Position numbers and translations under genes: made by a program. The notes beneath the pieces are model-generated. The model was not told where the DNA came from and did no database searches. It was given only the letters and a program-made list of their open reading frames with translations. Positions 1,804-10,040 of a stretch of 64,000 bases of DNA are shown one piece after another. The first letter of the stretch is position 1. Each line of letters opens with the position of its first letter. This DNA comes from an uncultured Phycisphaerales bacterium (GTDB lineage: Bacteria > Planctomycetota > Phycisphaerae > Tepidisphaerales > Tepidisphaeraceae), in the NCBI GenBank assembly GCA_963758525.1, contig CAVWVQ010000001.1, positions 96,001 through 160,000 of the forward strand, given 5' to 3'.

Positions 1804-2006
1804 TCAGGCTCCCACTGTCGCGACACTTGTCAGTGGCGCGGCGCGAAAGACTTTGGTGATTTTCCAGAGCATCCATCCGGGCGCGGACAACTTAGTGAGA
1901 ATGCCAACCAAGGTCAAGACGGGGGACAATGGACGCATGGGTTCAATGCACTGCGGACTGGATGAACAGTCCGGCGGGGCAGCGGTCTTTTTCCCCCACG
2001 GGAAAA

Positions 2007-2179
2007 GGAACCGAGGGTGCAAGCACCGCTCGGCGTTCAATCTCGGAACCTGCGCGCTCCACTGCGTCAACGTCCCCGAACGCCGAGGGTGCTTGCACAT
2101 TTGGGCGATCGAACTGGAGACGTGGGCGGGATCTGCGTCAACGTCCCCGAACGCCGAGGGTGCTTGCACCCTCGGTTCC
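2007..2179. repeat. REP-like palindromic cluster
   Basis: ggaaccgagggtgcaagcac at 2007 is inverted at about 2160-2179; ctgcgtcaacgtccccgaacgccgagggtgcttgcac occurs twice as a direct repeat (about 2062 and 2133). Confidence 0.8.
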
Positions 2180-2249
2180 GAAAGGTTCCCAAACGCGATT
2201 TCGTAACGAAAAATTCCCTGACAAAGCACTCGTAGCTTATAATCCATCC

Positions 2250-3728
2250 ATGGGTCTTCAGGCGAGACTGCGCCATGCGATGGGGGAGCGGGTGCTGGAA
2301 ATTCCATTGAGCGTCGCGGACCGGCCTTTTGTCATCGGTCGCGGACCGGATGCAAATTTGATCGTCCCTTCCGTCTCGGTGGCGCAACGGCAATGTGTGC
2401 TCTTCGTGAGCGACGGACAATGGGTGATTCAGGAATGGACGCCGGGAGGCACGCGAATCAACGGCCACGCGCCTGATGGACCCACGCCGCTTTGCGTGGG
2501 CGATGTGCTGACGATCGGCGCGGAGGGAACCGCCGCCACATTGGAGATCGACCCCGGCGGCGCTGAGTCCGGCCGTGCCGGGAGCCCGGCGTTGGATGGG
2601 GTCCGCTCGCCGCTACTGCGGCCCGCGCCGTCGCACGGGGAACGCGCTCAACCCGCTCCCGCGCTGGCGGCACGACCGCGGCCCGTGCCGCCGAGGACGA
2701 TCGCAGCTTCCTTTCAGCAGCTGGGGTCTGCTCCGCCCCCGCCGAAACAAATCCGCAAGGCGCCGGCAGCGGCAGGGGACCCGGACGGGGAGGTTGTTGA
2801 TTGGGTTCCAGCGGTTGATTCCGTGGAGGGGATCACGCTCGGGCACTCGCGGAAGAAGTCATCGCTGATACCGCTGTTGATCTGCATGGTGCTGGCGGCG
2901 GGGATCATCGGTGGCACCGCATGGTTTGTCGTGGAGCAGCTTCAGCATCCGCAGGTCGTGGTGATCGGTGCGCTAACGCCTCCGGGAGCCGGACCGAAGA
3001 AGCCGGCGACCGCGAGCGAAGGGGCCGAGACGAGTTCTTCCGATCCGACCGCCGATGCGCCCGGCGCAGGTTCGCCCAGCGCAGATGCGCCCGGCGCCGG
3101 TCCGCCCAGCGCGGATGCGCCCGGCGCAGGTTCGCCCAGCGCAGATGCGCCCAGCGCCGGTCCGCCCAGCGCAGATGCGCCAGACAATGGTGGTTCGCCC
3201 GCCCCGTCCGCTTCGGACGATCCGGACGCCCAATCGGGCGATCTGGATTGGACCGATGTGATGGTCGCGCGCGACCTGCCGGACCCCGCCCCCGCGATCG
3301 TTCGATACGAAGACTATCGCCGGCGCAATCCCGGCAAACATGACAAAACGCTTCGCCAATTCGAGGCCGAGGCGTTCGACAGGTTGTGGTGGCGGCGGAT
3401 CGCGCAGTTGTGTCATCGCCGCGTGCGGCTGGCCGTGGAAATCGAAGCCAAGAAGAAGGCGATCGCCGAAGAAAGTGATGCCTCCTTCAAAGCGCGACTT
3501 CAGTTGGAATTGGCCTCGCTGCAGCAGGATGAAAAAGCATCGAGCGACGCCTTGCACAACGACATGGGCTTCGATGCCGCCGACCCGCCCGACCTCGACG
3601 ACGAAAAAGCGATTGCCGCCGCGCGGGCAAATCGAAACAAGCAGAAATACGCAGAGTGGTCAAAGGACATCGGAACGTATGTTCGCAATCACGCCGGGGC
3701 GACGCCGTGGGGGGATGAGGATTTGTGA
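2250..3728 (+). CDS. FHA-domain single-pass membrane protein with Pro/Ala-rich linkers
   Basis: FVIGRGPDANLIVPSVSVAQRQCVL...GGTRING FHA-like N-terminus; TM LIPLLICMVLAAGIIGGTAWFVV; ATG at 2250 chosen over the upstream extension, which runs through a REP. Confidence 0.8.
   Translation: MGLQARLRHAMGERVLEIPLSVADRPFVIGRGPDANLIVPSVSVAQRQCVLFVSDGQWVIQEWTPGGTRINGHAPDGPTPLCVGDVLTIGAEGTAATLEIDPGGAESGRAGSPALDGVRSPLLRPAPSHGERAQPAPALAARPRPVPPRTIAASFQQLGSAPPPPKQIRKAPAAAGDPDGEVVDWVPAVDSVEGITLGHSRKKSSLIPLLICMVLAAGIIGGTAWFVVEQLQHPQVVVIGALTPPGAGPKKPATASEGAETSSSDPTADAPGAGSPSADAPGAGPPSADAPGAGSPSADAPSAGPPSADAPDNGGSPAPSASDDPDAQSGDLDWTDVMVARDLPDPAPAIVRYEDYRRRNPGKHDKTLRQFEAEAFDRLWWRRIAQLCHRRVRLAVEIEAKKKAIAEESDASFKARLQLELASLQQDEKASSDALHNDMGFDAADPPDLDDEKAIAAARANRNKQKYAEWSKDIGTYVRNHAGATPWGDEDL
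3051..3182 (+). repeat. 30-bp coding tandem repeat (ADAPGAG[S/P]PS, about 4.3 copies)
   Basis: gc(c/a/g)gatgcgccc(g/a)gcgc(a/c)ggt(t/c)cgcccagc repeated in frame within the FHA protein. Confidence 0.9.
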
Positions 3729-3751: not shown

Positions 3752-4477
3752 CTACCACGTCAGCGCATCCAGATGCCGCTGAATGTCCCCCGCGCTTCCA
3801 AAGCGCTCGAGGATCAGTGAATCTTTTTGTCCGCGAATGATGTCCTTCACCACCTTCGGCTGGCGGCTGTATCGCTTTCGCCCTCCGACGATCGTGTAAA
3901 ACACTTCGATCAGATTCAGAACGTCCTTGTGGATCTTGCTGCGCGTCGGCCGGCCGAGATCGAAGAAGTCGAGCAGCTTTACTTCAAAGCCGATGCCGCG
4001 CCGGCGGATCATGATGTTGTCGTCGTGAATGTCGCCGTGATATTCTCCCACCGCGTGAATCGGCGCGATTCCCTTGGCCAGCACGTAAAGCACGTGGAGC
4101 GCCTCGAAAGTGGTCAGCCGGTGCTCGCGCTGGGCAACGAGAAACTCGCTGAGCTTCTGGCCCTCAACCAGTTCGCTGATCACCACCATGACTTTCCGCC
4201 GACGGAAGTAGGCGATCTCCTGATGGTGATACTGCATGAGAATGGGACAGTGCCGCAGCGCGTCGAGCTTGCGTGCGTATGCGATGGCGGCTTTGCCCAT
4301 CGGGTCGCGATGGGGGTAATAGAACTTGGCCGCGCGGCGGATGCCCGTCGCCCGCTCGACGATCGAGTAGACTTCCCCTTCCCATCCGCTTCCCAGCAAC
4401 CCCTCGATCAGATATTTGCCTGCGACGCTCCGCCCCGGCGGGAAGTCGAATCGTTTCACTTTGCCGGGCCTGTACAT
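3752..4477 (-). CDS. Small atypical Ser/Thr protein kinase-like protein
   Basis: LLGSGWEGEVY glycine loop, AAKFY lysine, HGDIHDDNIM catalytic loop, LLDFFD in place of DFG; start uncertain (4477 or 4504). Confidence 0.8.
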   Translation of the reverse strand: MYRPGKVKRFDFPPGRSVAGKYLIEGLLGSGWEGEVYSIVERATGIRRAAKFYYPHRDPMGKAAIAYARKLDALRHCPILMQYHHQEIAYFRRRKVMVVISELVEGQKLSEFLVAQREHRLTTFEALHVLYVLAKGIAPIHAVGEYHGDIHDDNIMIRRRGIGFEVKLLDFFDLGRPTRSKIHKDVLNLIEVFYTIVGGRKRYSRQPKVVKDIIRGQKDSLILERFGSAGDIQRHLDALTW

Positions 4478-4666
4478 ACGCTCATATTGGGAGCCGCCGG
4501 GCAATTTTCAATCGGGGCCGGCCGGCAGTGGATTTTGATGAAAAATCGCCGGTCGTAGACAGAAAGGCCTTCCCAGAGTCCCGCGACCGAGGAACACTGT
4601 GCACCTTTGCACACCGTTCCAGCAACGTCACGTTCATCGCGAGAAACCTCTGCGCACTGAAACATT

Positions 4667-4875: not shown

Positions 4876-5265
4876 ATGGATTTTCTCAAAAGCATCGGCG
4901 GGAAAATCGTCACCGGGCTGGTGGCGCTGGCAGTGATCGCGGCAGGGGTCTCCTGGTTTGAGATGGACCCGGGCACGCGGCATGCCATCGCCTCTGACGC
5001 TGGCCGTATTCTTGCGTGGTCCGGAGTTGTCATCCTCCTGCCGTGGGTGACGTTCTTCCTCATCGGCGCCGTGGCGCGGCAGGAGAGCAACCTCGCGGGA
5101 GCCTTGCTGGTGACGGGATATACGATCGTCGAGGCGGTCGTGCTGGCGTGGTTGTTTGGGTGGTCGCTCCGCGGGGCGATGCCGTGGGTCTTCTTTTCGG
5201 CGGCAGTTTTGTTGGCCGCGGCGTATAATCTTTTCACGTGCGACTGGATCGCCGAGAAATTGTGA
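4876..5265 (+). CDS. Hypothetical integral membrane protein (about 4 TM), first gene of the ESCRT-III-like operon
   Basis: 129-aa hydrophobic ORF ending 4 nt before the kinase ATG. Confidence 0.8.
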   Translation: MDFLKSIGGKIVTGLVALAVIAAGVSWFEMDPGTRHAIASDAGRILAWSGVVILLPWVTFFLIGAVARQESNLAGALLVTGYTIVEAVVLAWLFGWSLRGAMPWVFFSAAVLLAAAYNLFTCDWIAEKL

Positions 5266-5269
5266 AGCC

Positions 5270-6325
5270 ATGATTACTCCAAATCAACGCGTCGGCGAAT
5301 ACGTTCTGCAGGAAAGGATTAGCGCCGGCACTTTTGGCGAGGTTTGGAAGGCGCATCACCACGTCTGGAGCGACCAGATCGTGGCGATGAAAATCCCCAC
5401 CGATCCGCAATACATCCGAAACCTCCAGCGCGAAGGCGTCACCATTCACGGGCTGGTTCATCCCAACATCGTGCGCACGTTGGCGTTCGATCCGTTTGCC
5501 GAGGTCGCGTATCTGGCGATGGAATACATTCCCGGCACCAGCCTTCGACCGGTGATTCAGAGCCGCAAGCTCAAACCGGACGACGCGGTAGCCATCATGC
5601 GGCAGGTGCTTGCGGGGCTCTCGTTTGCCCATGAGCGCGGGGTCGTGCATCGCGATATCAAGCCGGAGAATATCCTCGTCCACGAGCGCGTCGCCCAGGA
5701 AGGATATTCGTCGCCGGGGTTGATCAAGGTGACGGATTTCGGATTGGGCCAGACGTCGCAGACGATGGCGGCGGGGTCGATCGCGTACTCGGCGTCCCTG
5801 CAGACGCCGCAGGCGCAGGAAATCGCCGGCACGCTCGACTACATGGCGCCCGAGCAACGGAGCGTCCAGGAGAAAATTGACGGACGCACCGATCTCTACG
5901 CCTGCGGCGTGGTCCTTTACGAGATGCTCACCGGCGAACGACCAGCCGGCACAGAACTGCCCAGCGAGCTGAATCACGCCGTTTCGCGGCAACTCGACGA
6001 AGCGTTCCGTCGCTCCTACTCCCGGCTGGATAAGCGATTTGCTTCCGCGGCGGAGTTTGCCAAGGCGCTGGGCGGCCCGCCGCCCGTCCCGCAGACGGCG
6101 CCGCGGAGCGTGCCGTTGAATATGATGTTGCTGGAAAAGCGGGCGTGCCCGCAATGTCGTCAGTCGGTGGAAGCGGCGGACCAGTTCTGCATGCACTGCG
6201 GCGTGCAGCTGGTCGAAAACGTTCGCCGCTGTCCGCAGTGCGGCGCGTATCCCGATCTGACGGACCAGTATTGTATTTTTTGCGGACAGACGCTCAGCCG
6301 CACTCCGATGCCGGCCGCGAGGTAA
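5270..6325 (+). CDS. Hanks-type Ser/Thr protein kinase with C-terminal double zinc ribbon
   Basis: AGTFGEVWK, VAMK, HRDIKPEN, DFG, GTLDYMAPE; CPQC..FCMHCG..CPQC..YCIFCG. Confidence 0.93.
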   Translation: MITPNQRVGEYVLQERISAGTFGEVWKAHHHVWSDQIVAMKIPTDPQYIRNLQREGVTIHGLVHPNIVRTLAFDPFAEVAYLAMEYIPGTSLRPVIQSRKLKPDDAVAIMRQVLAGLSFAHERGVVHRDIKPENILVHERVAQEGYSSPGLIKVTDFGLGQTSQTMAAGSIAYSASLQTPQAQEIAGTLDYMAPEQRSVQEKIDGRTDLYACGVVLYEMLTGERPAGTELPSELNHAVSRQLDEAFRRSYSRLDKRFASAAEFAKALGGPPPVPQTAPRSVPLNMMLLEKRACPQCRQSVEAADQFCMHCGVQLVENVRRCPQCGAYPDLTDQYCIFCGQTLSRTPMPAAR

Positions 6326-6331
6326 AGAATC

Positions 6332-6613
6332 ATGGTGCATGTAGCCGTTGGCGCGGTGCTGTTTGCGGCCTTGATGGTCATCACCGCGGTGCTCTTCACG
6401 ATCTGGCTGGTGGCCCTGGTGGCGCGCTGGATGTGGCGCCTGGTGATGGGCGGCACTTCGCGTTCGTCATATTCTTCCAAGGGTGTTCTCGACACACGGA
6501 TGTGCAGCCGCGACCGCTGCCGGGCGGTAAATCCATCGCAGGCACAATTCTGTCGTCGCTGCGGCACCAGCTTGAACGACGCCGCCGCCGTCGGACGGCG
6601 CGTCGCCGTCTGA
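6332..6613 (+). CDS. Small membrane-anchored zinc-ribbon protein
   Basis: Long hydrophobic N-terminus, then CSRDRCRAVNPSQAQFCRRCG. Confidence 0.8.
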   Translation: MVHVAVGAVLFAALMVITAVLFTIWLVALVARWMWRLVMGGTSRSSYSSKGVLDTRMCSRDRCRAVNPSQAQFCRRCGTSLNDAAAVGRRVAV

Positions 6614-6631: not shown

Positions 6632-7563
6632 GTGAGTATGACCGTGCCCACGTCAACTGCCGCCCCGGTCGATCCCCCGGCGATGGATCCTCAATCGCAG
6701 ATGGTGCGAGCCGCCGGTTCAACCGGGTGGGGCGTGATCACTTCGGCGATCGTCGGCGCGGTTTCCTTTGGCATACTTCCCGCATTCCGCTGGTCTGGAC
6801 AATTCGCCGACATCGCCGAACGCGAAGCATCGCGCTTTCGCGGTCCGGTCCGCTGGGCGATCGCAATCGATGGATCGCAGCGGACCGCGCAGGAACTGAA
6901 CGAGCGCGTTCTCGCGTCGCTCCGCGCTGGTACCTTACGGTTTTCAGCTACGCGCTGGTCGTATACGTTGCCGTTACTTTCTCGCTGGAATTTCTCAGGC
7001 AATCGTTTTCGATCGATCGGCTGATGCTCTATACCTATTCCTACGCGAGGCCTGAATCCGATTTCATGTGGAACGTTTTTGACGCGGACCGATGGGCTCG
7101 ATCGGAACACGCTCGCGCAGCGCATATGCTCTGGTGCGTCGCGCTGTCCGTTGCGTATGGAGCCCATTGGCTGCAGGTCCGTTGGCATCGAAAGGCCGTT
7201 CGGCGGTTTGTTCGCACCTTCAATCGCGTCGTTCAACCGCGCGGCATCCTCCCCGTGCAAATGCGCGAGCCGGGCGCCTTTCATCCGATGCTGGTCGTGG
7301 GAGCCATTCTGTTTGGTTCGTTTGGCGCCTGGTGGGGAATCCCCATGCTGCTGGCCGCTTCGGCTCAGAGTCGATATACCTTGATAACGCGCCGGTCGCT
7401 TGCAGTGCAGTTTGCCGACCGCATGAGCAAAAGAGCGGTGCAGCGCACGGTCGAAAGGCGCTGCCCAACGCAGGGCTGCCGGGCGCTGCTTCCGCCGCCC
7501 GCGAAATTTTGTCCGCAGTGCGGAGCGCGGGTGCCAGAGCCGATGATCGATCAGGTGGGTTAG
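6632..7563 (+). CDS. Multi-TM membrane protein with C-terminal zinc ribbon (apparent frameshift near 6905)
   Basis: N-part in ORF 6632-7024 (TM GVITSAIVGAVSFGILPAF) joins the frame of 6145-7563 (further TMs; CPTQGCRALLPPPAKFCPQCG) if one base is restored. Confidence 0.7.
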
Positions 7564-7566
7564 TCC

Positions 7567-7707
7567 ATGCCGCAAATGTATCGAATGCTCGCGGTGATTG
7601 GGTGGACGTGGTGCATCGGGTTCTTCCTTTTCCTTGCATTCAAGCTGTGCCGTTTGCCGAGGCGGACGGATGCAGCAAATTCGGATGAGTCTTCGCGAGT
7701 TGCCTGA
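7567..7707 (+). CDS. 46-aa single-TM microprotein (MPQMYRMLAVIGWTWCIGFFLFLAFKLCRLPRRTDAANSDESSRVA)
   Basis: Translated by hand; starts 3 nt after the upstream stop and its TGA overlaps the next ATG (TGATG); below the ORF-track length cutoff. Confidence 0.65.
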   Translation: MPQMYRMLAVIGWTWCIGFFLFLAFKLCRLPRRTDAANSDESSRVA

Positions 7708-9170
7708 TGAGCAGTACCGATCCCCTGATTCACCGCGAGCTTGAAGAGCAGATGATTCGGCACGTCGAACGCCTGCTCACCGATGATCGTCTTCGCATCG
7801 ATACCGCGATCGGCCGCCGTCCGGTCATGACGTTTATCAACAGCCCGGTGAAATCGGATCATGCGGTCGAGCTCAAGCGCCTGATGAGCGAGATGAATGT
7901 GCCGGACCGCGAGTTGCAGGCGAAGATGCCGGTCGGTCTTTCGCTCGAGGTCGCGCTGACGCGCAGGAAGCTCTTCATTTTTACGCAGACGGTGGGGCGC
8001 TTGCGCGTGTTGTGCGTCCCGCCCATGCGCGCCCTGATTGGCGGTGAAGTCCCCAGGCCGATGACGACCGGCGAGTTGCAAAAGGTGCTCGCTTCACAAC
8101 CGCCGTCGACTCCCGGAGCGCCGACGACGATATTAATCGTCTCGACCAGCGGCTACACGCTTGAGGCACACGAAGCGGCCGAGCGCCGCACCGATCGCAC
8201 CGTTATACTGGCTGAGCCGAACGACGCCGGCGGGTGGACCATTACCGGTCCGGCCGAAACCAAGGCGTTGACTGATCTGTTCGATCCGGAGGTGGAGGAC
8301 GAGAAGCGCAGCCGCGTTCGCGAGCAGATTGAAGAGGAGAAGATGAATCTCTCCGGCGCCGGCATCGCCACCGACAAGCTCGCGGCGCGAATGCAGCTTC
8401 CGGTGCAGTTTGTCGAGGGCGAGCTGAAGGCCTACGCCAAGGCCAACCCCGGCCTGGTCGCCCGGCGACTGGATGGCCGGGTTGTTCTCTTTCGCGAGGG
8501 GTCGGGTCCGCCGGCACTCGCCGCTGGAGGTTCATCCATGCCGTTGATCGATCGCGTCAAAACACTCTTTGCCCGCAAGGGCGAGGTCGAGAAAAAAATC
8601 GCGTTTCTCTCCGAGCGCCGCACCGCTCTCTCGCAGCAGCGCGAACGTTCCTACGAAGAGATGGCGGGTATCGAGCAGCAGGAAGCGCAGCTCAAACGCC
8701 AGTTCGGCGAGGCGACCGGTACGATCACCAAGAAGCGGGTCACGAGCCAGCTTCTGCAGATGCGAAAGGATCTGGAGCGACGCCAGCAGCTTCTCTCGGT
8801 GCTGAATCAGCAGGTGGATGTCGTAAGCACGCATCTGCACAATCTGGAGCTCGTTCAGCAGGGCCAGACCGCGAAGCTGCCGGATGCGGATGAGATGACC
8901 GCCGACGCGGTCAAAGCCGAGGAGATGCTCGCGGAACTTGAAGCCAACAGTGAATTATCCGCGTCAATCGGACAGACCGGCGGAATCGCGGGGCTCAACG
9001 CCGAGGAACAGGCGCTTTACGAAGAACTCGAGCGCGAAATGAATCCCGCGAAATCCATCCCCGCGTCCTCCCCCGGGCGAAAGATCGCATCGAAGCAGGA
9101 TGAGCCGGCTCGTCCCGAGCCGACTTCCGCCCCCTCGCGGCAGCGTCGCGGCGAAGCCGAGCCCGGATAA
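7707..9170 (+). CDS. Fusion protein: restriction-endonuclease-like alpha/beta domain + winged helix + ESCRT-III/Snf7-like helical domain
   Basis: ILIVSTSGYTLEAHEAA (Mrr-like strand/helix); IATDKLAARMQLPVQFVEGELKAY..GLVARRLDGRVVLF (wHTH pattern); C-terminal MPLIDRVKTLFARK...long helical hairpin...GLNAEEQALYEELEREM. CDS is secure; domain calls are by eye. Confidence 0.6.
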   Translation: MSSTDPLIHRELEEQMIRHVERLLTDDRLRIDTAIGRRPVMTFINSPVKSDHAVELKRLMSEMNVPDRELQAKMPVGLSLEVALTRRKLFIFTQTVGRLRVLCVPPMRALIGGEVPRPMTTGELQKVLASQPPSTPGAPTTILIVSTSGYTLEAHEAAERRTDRTVILAEPNDAGGWTITGPAETKALTDLFDPEVEDEKRSRVREQIEEEKMNLSGAGIATDKLAARMQLPVQFVEGELKAYAKANPGLVARRLDGRVVLFREGSGPPALAAGGSSMPLIDRVKTLFARKGEVEKKIAFLSERRTALSQQRERSYEEMAGIEQQEAQLKRQFGEATGTITKKRVTSQLLQMRKDLERRQQLLSVLNQQVDVVSTHLHNLELVQQGQTAKLPDADEMTADAVKAEEMLAELEANSELSASIGQTGGIAGLNAEEQALYEELEREMNPAKSIPASSPGRKIASKQDEPARPEPTSAPSRQRRGEAEPG

Positions 9171-9173
9171 ACC

Positions 9174-9787
9174 ATGGCACTGATCGACAAGTTGTTCAAT
9201 CGCAAGAAGACGCTCAGCGAGCTGGACCGACAGGAGCTGCGCAAGGAAGAAATCCTGCTCGGCAAGCAGCGCGATCGTCTGTTCAAGAAGATCGAGAAGA
9301 TCAGCCAGGACAAGCAGCGCATTTTCAAGCAGGGATCCGAGCAGAAATCGCCCGAGCTGCGCAAGCGCTTGCGCAGGACTTTGAGTTGCAGACCCAGGAG
9401 CAGCTCATGGCCGCCCGTGAGCTGAATCTGCGCAGCAAAGAGCTGATGACCGTCAGCCGGCTGCGCATGGTCCGCGAAAACAAAGACGGCGGCCGGGCGC
9501 TGGGCCGGCTGAATGTCACGGACAAGGACGTTGCGCGGATCAGCCAGTGGATCGAAGACGACTCGGTCACGCAGGACATGTATCAGGAACGGCTCGACAC
9601 ACTGCTGGAGTTGGGCGCTCAATCCGATAAAGACGCCGTCGCCCAGGCCGGGCTCACCGGCGCCGGCCAGGAGCTGATGCAGCTTTGGGACCAGCTCGAT
9701 CGGGGGTCGATCAAGCAGGAAGAGGCGTTTGACGAAGCGGATAAAGCGGTGCGCCGACGAAATGCATCGATGGAAGGGGAGAGGTGA
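9174..9787 (+). CDS. ESCRT-III/Snf7-like helical protein (frameshift near 9365)
   Basis: MALIDKLFNRKKTLSELDRQELRKEEILLGKQRDRLFKKIEK...; restoring one G (AAG GCG CTT GCG CAG GAC TTT) joins 9174-9425 and 9386-9787 into about 204 aa with basic N-half and acidic C-half. Confidence 0.65.
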
Positions 9788-9796
9788 CAAGCAAAT

Positions 9797-10040
9797 CCGA
9801 ATGACGAAACCAGAAACCAGAATCAAGCCCGAATGACGAAACCCGAAACCAGAATCAAGCCCGAATGCTCGAATGACGAAGCCCGAAACGAAGTTAGACC
9901 GCCGATTTCCTGGAACAATCGCGTCGCGGGGAGGACGATGACATCGCGGAGCGTAGCGTTCCCTGCCTTTGTTTCGTCATTCGGTCATTCGTCATTTGGG
10001 TTTGATTGATTCTGGTTTCTGGTTTCGTCATTCGGGTTTC
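9797..10040. repeat. Long imperfect inverted repeat built from short (about 7-nt) units
   Basis: ccgaatgacgaaaccagaaaccagaatcaa x2 on the left; ttgattctggtttctggtttcgtcattcgg on the right; about 80-bp spacer. Confidence 0.8.

Follow-up and report, generated by a model that had tools for sequence, protein, structure and literature searches.

The locus described here is probably part of an ESCRT-type system in bacteria, built around a fusion gene that likely has two starts. In the window (the whole stretch of 64,000 nucleotides that was analysed), this gene joins an N-half, composed of a nuclease-like domain and a winged helix, to a C-half that is likely an ESCRT-III protein. We consider it probable that the fused gene, having kept the start of a formerly separate second gene, yields a long adaptor-plus-ESCRT-III protein together with a short free subunit, both for a bacterial ESCRT-III/Vps4-like membrane-remodelling machine.

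The fusion gene and its two halves

The features of the fusion gene and the gene that follows it are:

7707..9170, + strand: fusion gene, 487 aa (long form); open reading frame, homologue search, AF2 model
7707..8288, + strand: N-terminal alpha/beta domain, aa 1-194, weakly restriction-endonuclease/Mrr-like, without catalytic D and QxK; AF2, hhalign, Foldseek
8289..8501, + strand: winged helix, aa 195-265, right after which stand-alone orthologues stop; AF2, structure search
8526..8531, + strand: internal Shine-Dalgarno (SD) GGAGGT, within a low-confidence linker; sequence, anti-SD pairing
8538..9170, + strand: predicted short form, 210 aa, likely ESCRT-III; AF2 helix layout, homology chain
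9174..9787, + strand: second ESCRT-III-like gene (E2), frameshifted near 9366 here and intact in relatives; loci of relatives

The sequence-only reading of this DNA had raised the doubt that the fusion might be an assembly error or the result of a lost stop codon. Both were rejected: the homologue search with the fusion protein gave 677 proteins, the 120 of them that were listed (query included) are all 469-521 aa long, and the junction is open in 109/110 class-level loci. Met stands at alignment column 278 in 120/120 of the listed homologues. A search of 401 class genomes detected the gene in 122, almost always in one copy (58/63, 15/15, 22/22, 22/22, 2/2, 1/2 and 1/2 genomes of seven families, between which the fusion shares 22-37% identity; the tallies take in one unpublished genome, G283), and in 0/272 genomes of 17 other families, so that 17 of the 24 families of the class gave no match. 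The loci compared below come from 110 of the 122 fusion-bearing genomes plus three named records, and since the genomes counted are kin, locus counts are not independent. Close relatives of the gene are labelled Tepidisphaeraceae and Humisphaera by their source, which we take to belong to class Phycisphaerae, phylum Planctomycetota. In the Atlas, the whole protein matched only unnamed Planctomycetota clusters and aa 1-195 gave low scores (0.77, DUF8052), while PADLOC had no match for the fusion protein, E2 or E3 (a further gene of the cluster), and NCBIfam none specific for the same three.

The AF2 model has a mean pLDDT of 87.9 for the full protein (pTM 0.75) and 97.2 for aa 1-265. The Mrr-like segment that had been picked out, ILIVSTSGYTLEAHEAA, corresponds to residues 142-158 (8130-8180). 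When aa 1-194 were aligned by hhalign with a 14-sequence Mrr_cat alignment (PF04471), the score was 26.5 with 101 columns in register and a probability of 25%, compared with 19 for the best of 40 block shuffles, 10.7 for the reversed alignment and 21.6 over 23 columns for a kinase control. The strand/helix order and a TSGF-type motif are in register with Mrr_cat, from which the domain differs by two insertions and by the catalytic D and (D/E/Q)xK, absent at the aligned columns in fused and split forms alike; this agrees with the earlier remark that a clear PD-(D/E)xK set is missing. Foldseek matches of the domain, which was modelled within aa 1-265, appeared only at E > 0.01 (including MspJI, Bax1 and MUS81-EME2), with nothing at E <= 0.001. 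As the domain was modelled together with the winged helix, the wider structure search that ranked matches of the winged helix barely probes it; Pfam gave no match for it. With moderate confidence, we regard it as a putative dead nuclease fold.

The winged helix that had been proposed from sequence was predicted by AF2 at residues 195-265, so its position stood, while its extent did not, the predicted domain being one helix longer. It matches many such domains (Z 6-8.5), the best being Zalpha (Z 8.5, rmsd 2.5, 68 aligned), with ESCRT-II 1w7p at rank 47 (Z 6.2, rmsd 3.4, 62 aligned). It is thus a generic winged helix, not nearer to ESCRT-II than to many regulators, and its top structural matches are nucleic-acid binders. 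The N-half of CHMP7/Chm7, by comparison, is made of tandem winged helices.

In the C-half, AF2 predicts helices at 280-289 (alpha0), 294-335 with 339-384 (hairpin), 394-422 and 432-445, followed by an acidic disordered tail, a layout that matches that of ESCRT-III (alpha0, alpha1-alpha2/3 hairpin, alpha4, alpha5, acidic tail). Direct comparison with Snf7, CdvB and PspA gave nothing significant (Snf7 in 2/105 at E 0.03; CdvB at E 0.33), and the structure matches (PspA Z 9.1, Snf7 8.5, CHMP4B 8.5) lie amid unrelated coiled coils. The C-half (E1) has no direct match to E3 either; the homology chain runs from the C-half to E2 (93%) and from E2 to E3 (P = 0.002 over 113 columns). The E3 profile in turn gave four PDB sequences at E <= 10, of which three are CHMP3 (best 8.6e-4) and none is PspA or Vipp1, and Snf7 matches 7/39 E3 members below the cut-off. 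Based on the helix layout and this indirect chain to CHMP3, the C-half likely belongs to ESCRT-III, as had been suggested. An amphipathic start shared by all three proteins is not supported by the hydrophobic moment of alpha0: only the C-half has a high value (0.57), those of E2 (0.27) and E3 (0.17) being low.

When the two halves were given as separate chains to complex prediction, the score was 0.49 against 0.00 for the best control, in a calibration whose mark was reached by 116/157 solved and 2/215 mismatched pairs, with 18/157 of the solved and both mismatched pairs at 0.60 or under. The runs agree in at least 97% of contacts and the partner pLDDT is at least 89, which weakly supports the modelled docking of the N-half on the C-half.

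The internal start and the origin of the fusion

The GGAGG at 8526-8530 lies 7 nt upstream of the in-frame ATG at 8538, which is Met278 of the ORF 7707-9170, exactly as had been read from the sequence. In the model, the SD falls within a low-confidence linker, and the split gene of other classes starts at the same helix as the short form. Genome-wide, only 58 of 16,460 in-frame internal ATGs in ORFs of at least 400 aa have GGAGG 4-9 nt upstream, and the anti-SD pairing at ATG 8538 (-10.7 kcal/mol, computed against the same genome's own 16S 3' end) is the top one among the 14 internal ATGs of the fusion gene. As a synonymous-codon null on the window's gene alone gave p = 0.12, the case for the internal start rests on conservation.

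Conservation was found at both the start codon and the SD. The codon at the Met278 column is ATG in 99 and GTG in 2 of the 111 loci with a residue there (101/111 together), and both Met-to-Val changes at this column are GTG. The SD is encoded by differing residues, namely Gly-Gly in the window's family and Glu-Glu/Lys-Glu, Glu-Lys or Glu-Gly in other families. In the window's family, Gly-Gly at -4/-3 is written as GGAGG in 34/36 loci (6/166 Gly-Gly pairs elsewhere in those genes), and Gly at -4 is GGA in 36/39 (166/1592 Gly codons elsewhere). Measured against the synonymous-codon null, pairing comes out better for 45/55, 15/17, 11/11 and 2/2 loci in four families, respectively; family f14 shows no codon preference for the SD, with just 5/22 loci beating the null. 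Allowing a two-codon shift, a start with an SD of -4 kcal/mol or better is present in 100/110 loci, and about 10/110 are without an internal start. Folding of the mRNA at the internal start is weaker than in the gene body in 91/97 loci, resembling true first starts, an effect that is partly due to amino-acid make-up, as 9/10 start-less loci show it too, less strongly. The internal SD is also stronger than the first-start SD in 75/83 loci, but the ratio of long to short form is unreadable from SD strength because the first start of the fusion gene overlaps the upstream stop (TGATG).

The internal start follows the partner genes. In the window's family, it is kept in 45/50 genomes with E3 and lost in 5/6 genomes where E3 was not found, the sixth of these loci ending at a contig end and keeping the ATPase. 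The ATPase is absent in 4/4 of the start-losing genomes in which it was examined (four of the five), and since two of the five genomes share a genus, the losses amount to about four events. Conversely, five E3-bearing loci of this family have no good start within two codons. In one locus (L088, G115:C1), a stop ends the N-half immediately upstream of the former SD-ATG, from which an unrelated ORF now starts, and neither E3 nor the ATPase was found in that genome. Taken together, these patterns make it very probable that the fusion gene makes two products, one long and one short. It is already known that in-frame internal starts give long and short isoforms in clpB, infB and cheA; unlike in those genes, the internal start here traces to the start of a formerly separate gene.

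The origin of this start was seen in other classes of Planctomycetota. A profile search of 401 genomes of the phylum matched 73 outside the class, many of them with a stop inside the match, and 44 non-redundant loci of the 73 were examined. A search with the N-half alignment gave fused forms in its best 120 rows, a list too short to reach split ones. In 44/44 the halves are separate neighbouring genes, as the earlier reading had proposed to look for, with a stop directly after the winged helix. A strict pattern places the start of the downstream gene no more than 130 nt away in 30/44, where it opens with the same helix (M-x-L-(L/F)-D-(K/R)-I-K-x-L-F); further loci show the helix start by eye, three loci end early, and the second gene frequently overlaps the stop of the first. 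The fused C-half and the split gene align with a probability of 98.7% over 162 columns. In a quick unrooted tree built from 38 fused (subsampled) and 44 split N-halves, 82 in all, the fused forms make up one side of one branch (SH-aLRT 83), adjoining two split loci whose gene set is reduced in the same way. The simplest reading of these sequences is one old fusion that kept the start of the second gene. Of the two options offered earlier, a long plus a short form or a recent fusion of two genes, the two forms and the fusion of two genes thus fit together, while a recent date was rejected, as the fused forms span seven families at 22-37% identity on one side of one branch.

Some variants of the two genes were noted along the way. 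The stand-alone N-half gene opens with a cysteine-rich zinc-finger-like domain in L182, L184, L185, L188 and L190, and carries a long extra N-terminal region in L154, L155, L158, L161, L168-L170, L176 and L177. One locus (L105, G108) has an extra stand-alone ESCRT-III half after the fusion gene (+1543 to +1987 from the gene start). Dozens of divergent stand-alone proteins of 190-215 aa resemble the fused-type short form with the same start point (P0231, P0244, P0261, P0263 and P0264 among them), and one such relative, on a 557 kb contig, is labelled as a Promethearchaeota MAG (MHA2279654.1). They are possibly mobile or phage copies; a phage origin remains a guess because their context was not found in viral contigs, phage records or metagenome contigs.

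Gene cluster and partner proteins

Upstream of the fusion gene, the window holds the following genes:

7567..7707, + strand: 46-codon hydrophobic ORF whose TGA overlaps the fusion ATG (TGATG); no NCBIfam match; sequence
6632..7563, + strand: membrane protein with a C-terminal zinc ribbon, family-specific (35 loci), apparently frameshifted here; neighbour conservation
6332..6613, + strand: small hydrophobic zinc-ribbon protein, conserved neighbour (64 loci); neighbour conservation
5270..6325, + strand: Ser/Thr kinase with a double zinc ribbon, conserved neighbour (kinase cluster in 76 loci); neighbour conservation
4876..5265, + strand: small multi-pass membrane protein, conserved neighbour (68 loci); neighbour conservation

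In the class, the cluster begins with the small membrane protein gene, followed by those of the Ser/Thr kinase and the zinc-ribbon protein, the fusion gene, E2 and E3, and a single-ring AAA ATPase ends it in five families. This wider cluster, with its ATPase, had gone unnoticed in the sequence-only reading. E3 was found in 120/401 genomes, three of them weak, with the same family pattern as the fusion gene; in the source genome both E3 (C1:170196-170801) and the ATPase (C1:79458-80612) lie outside the window. The N-domain of the partner ATPase was found in 69/81 family genomes. Of the split loci, 35 of 44 have E3, 32 an ATPase and 24 a second ATPase type. This second type, a single-ring AAA ATPase with a helical N-domain, sits between E2 and E3 (24 of the loci, within L156-L195; e.g., L194:9055-10275) and was not seen in Phycisphaerae loci.

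Vps4_C matches 28/31 partner ATPases, which have a single AAA ring domain and are encoded beside ESCRT-III genes. In NCBIfam the top match is CdvC with 229 bits, under the cut-off, followed by CDC48 with 226 and PAN alike. The N-domain matches MIT in 1/8 at E = 0.05 and, weakly, TPR in 5/8. Searches of PDB sequences with both ATPases were swamped by two-ring Cdc48, which left Vps4 unranked, and the PADLOC/NCBIfam matches of kinase and ATPase are generic. By its sequence, the partner ATPase is of the Vps4/Cdc48 class. That the cluster as a whole is an ESCRT-III/Vps4-like machine seems to us highly probable.

Several other elements were observed. Three otherwise conserved genes carry frameshifts, i.e., E2 (9174-9787), the membrane zinc-ribbon gene (6632-7563) and another AAA ATPase (G000:C1:87770-88533), and these are probably read errors of the assembly. 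Short contigs built from small portions of two DNA read runs span neither the E2 frameshift nor the fusion junction. Further upstream, the gene of an FHA-domain protein (1929-3728, + strand) did not appear in the set of conserved neighbours, and a second kinase-like gene (3752-4504, - strand) recurs in 8 loci of the family. A short repeated intergenic element at 9790-10030, between E2 and the thiC leader region, is also matched by unrelated contigs.

Relation to known systems and possible function

Chm7 is described as an ESCRT-II/III chimera in the available part of bioRxiv 10.1101/049148, and the fusion protein resembles CHMP7/Chm7 in that a single chain carries a winged-helix module ahead of its ESCRT-III-like half, beside other ESCRT-III proteins. 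The CHMP7-like logic suggested earlier therefore stands as a likeness in design, and membership does not: here a single winged helix follows a nuclease-like alpha/beta domain, whereas the N-half of CHMP7/Chm7 is Vps25-like, its tandem winged helices being noted in PMC10936438. No sequence link was found, and the fusion appears independent. The internal start would also give a free subunit, a feature unmentioned for Chm7 in that part of the preprint.

Archaeal ESCRT loci (CdvABC, euryarchaeal Main and Halo_adaptin) are similar in that, according to PMC10936438, a winged-helix gene lies upstream of ESCRT-III, with a Vps4-class ATPase and often a Ser/Thr kinase. The present loci differ in that the host is a bacterium, a nuclease-like domain precedes the winged helix, the ESCRT-III-like genes number three or four and there can be two ATPases; no equivalent of CdvA or arCOG08177 was noticed in the loci. 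PMC11237479 reports the transfer of Vps4-like genes to bacteria, Planctomycetes among them, where a TPR-6TM gene has displaced snf7, and also that some bacterial PspA or Snf7 genes accompany other AAA ATPases; unlike in those Vps4-like loci, snf7-type and Vps4-like genes co-occur here. PspA/Vipp1 share the helix layout of the ESCRT-III superfamily and an N-terminal amphipathic helix in a bacterium (PMC11237479 and PMC7619361), but E3 matches CHMP3, not PspA. We found no description of the cluster in the literature, although subscription papers, bioRxiv supplements and Table S3 of PMC11237479, all beyond the scope of the search, could hold such loci; the accessible part of PMC7203096 had nothing relevant.

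To hypothesize, the 210-aa short form would bind the membrane with its amphipathic alpha0 at a free N-terminus and form the bulk polymer with E2 and E3. The nuclease-like/winged-helix head of the 487-aa long form would dock on ESCRT-III and place or seed the polymer, as ESCRT-II does for Vps20, the ATPase would disassemble it, and the kinase and membrane zinc-ribbon proteins may regulate it. A 265-aa head on all subunits would crowd the filament, which would explain the kept internal start. That the head acts as an adaptor is, in our view, slightly favoured over its not doing so.

It is also conceivable, though improbable, that the fusion is neutral, i.e., both products are made after a single loss of the stop, with all ESCRT-III work left to the short form and the long form amounting to an N-half with an idle tail. 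The split state works in all 44 examined loci of other classes, and the stronger internal SD (75/83 loci) fits this too; however, a weak SD at the first start, which often overlaps a stop, does not have to entail low output, and the junction stays open in 109/110 class loci, with the single re-split (L088) having lost the ESCRT-III half and the partners. An N-half that binds DNA or RNA, linking the membrane polymer to the chromosome or to a signal of infection in the service of division-segregation or defence, seems quite improbable to us. The nucleic-acid binders among the top structural matches of the winged helix speak for binding. For division-segregation, ftsZ was not found in 5/5 genomes tested (87-95% complete; 13/14 controls positive), and Phycisphaerae divide by fission without FtsZ according to PMC6952346, which leaves open how such bacteria shape or cut membranes. 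Against either role, the gene was not found in 17 of 24 class families (272 genomes) and was lost in several genomes that are 91-97% complete; a single copy in a stable gene order is unlike most defence genes, and PADLOC had no match for fusion, E2 or E3. It is very improbable that only one product is made, Met278 and the residues before it being conserved for the protein's sake and the SD-like stretch being a relic or pause site. The missing synonymous bias in f14 and the roughly 10/110 start-less loci, which favour this reading, are outweighed: GGA is used at -4 in 36/39 Gly codons although the linker varies in both length and sequence, the spacing is fixed, the substitutions are GTG, the mRNA folds weakly at the site (91/97), and Met278 sits at the start of the orthologous stand-alone gene.

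Rather than obligatory division, the two-product ESCRT-III/Vps4-like machine would most likely carry out repair or regulated budding of the inner membrane. We give an essential division role a low rating because the system was not found in most families of the class and was lost in some near-complete genomes, and its patchy presence argues against a universal division machine. A wider reading, which we hold only tentatively and consider rather unlikely in full, is that Planctomycetota have a complete undescribed ESCRT pathway with a winged-helix adaptor, a kinase, three or four ESCRT-III subunits of the Snf7 type and one or two ATPases resembling Vps4. Phycisphaerae would then have independently made a CHMP7-style chimera giving nucleator and polymer, and these cells without FtsZ would rely on the machine for fission of membranes and possibly for division.

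A 2025 review states that a Vps4-like ATPase partner appears absent from bacterial ESCRT-III systems (PMC7619361), and a 2024 survey that ESCRT homologues in bacteria are not identifiable (PMC10936438). If many Planctomycetota families have all three building blocks in one conserved cluster, this picture of bacteria lacking ESCRT would change. The fusion gene is a clean case of a fusion predicted to retain both the fused and the free product, and the cluster offers testable candidates for membrane shaping or cutting in FtsZ-less bacteria.
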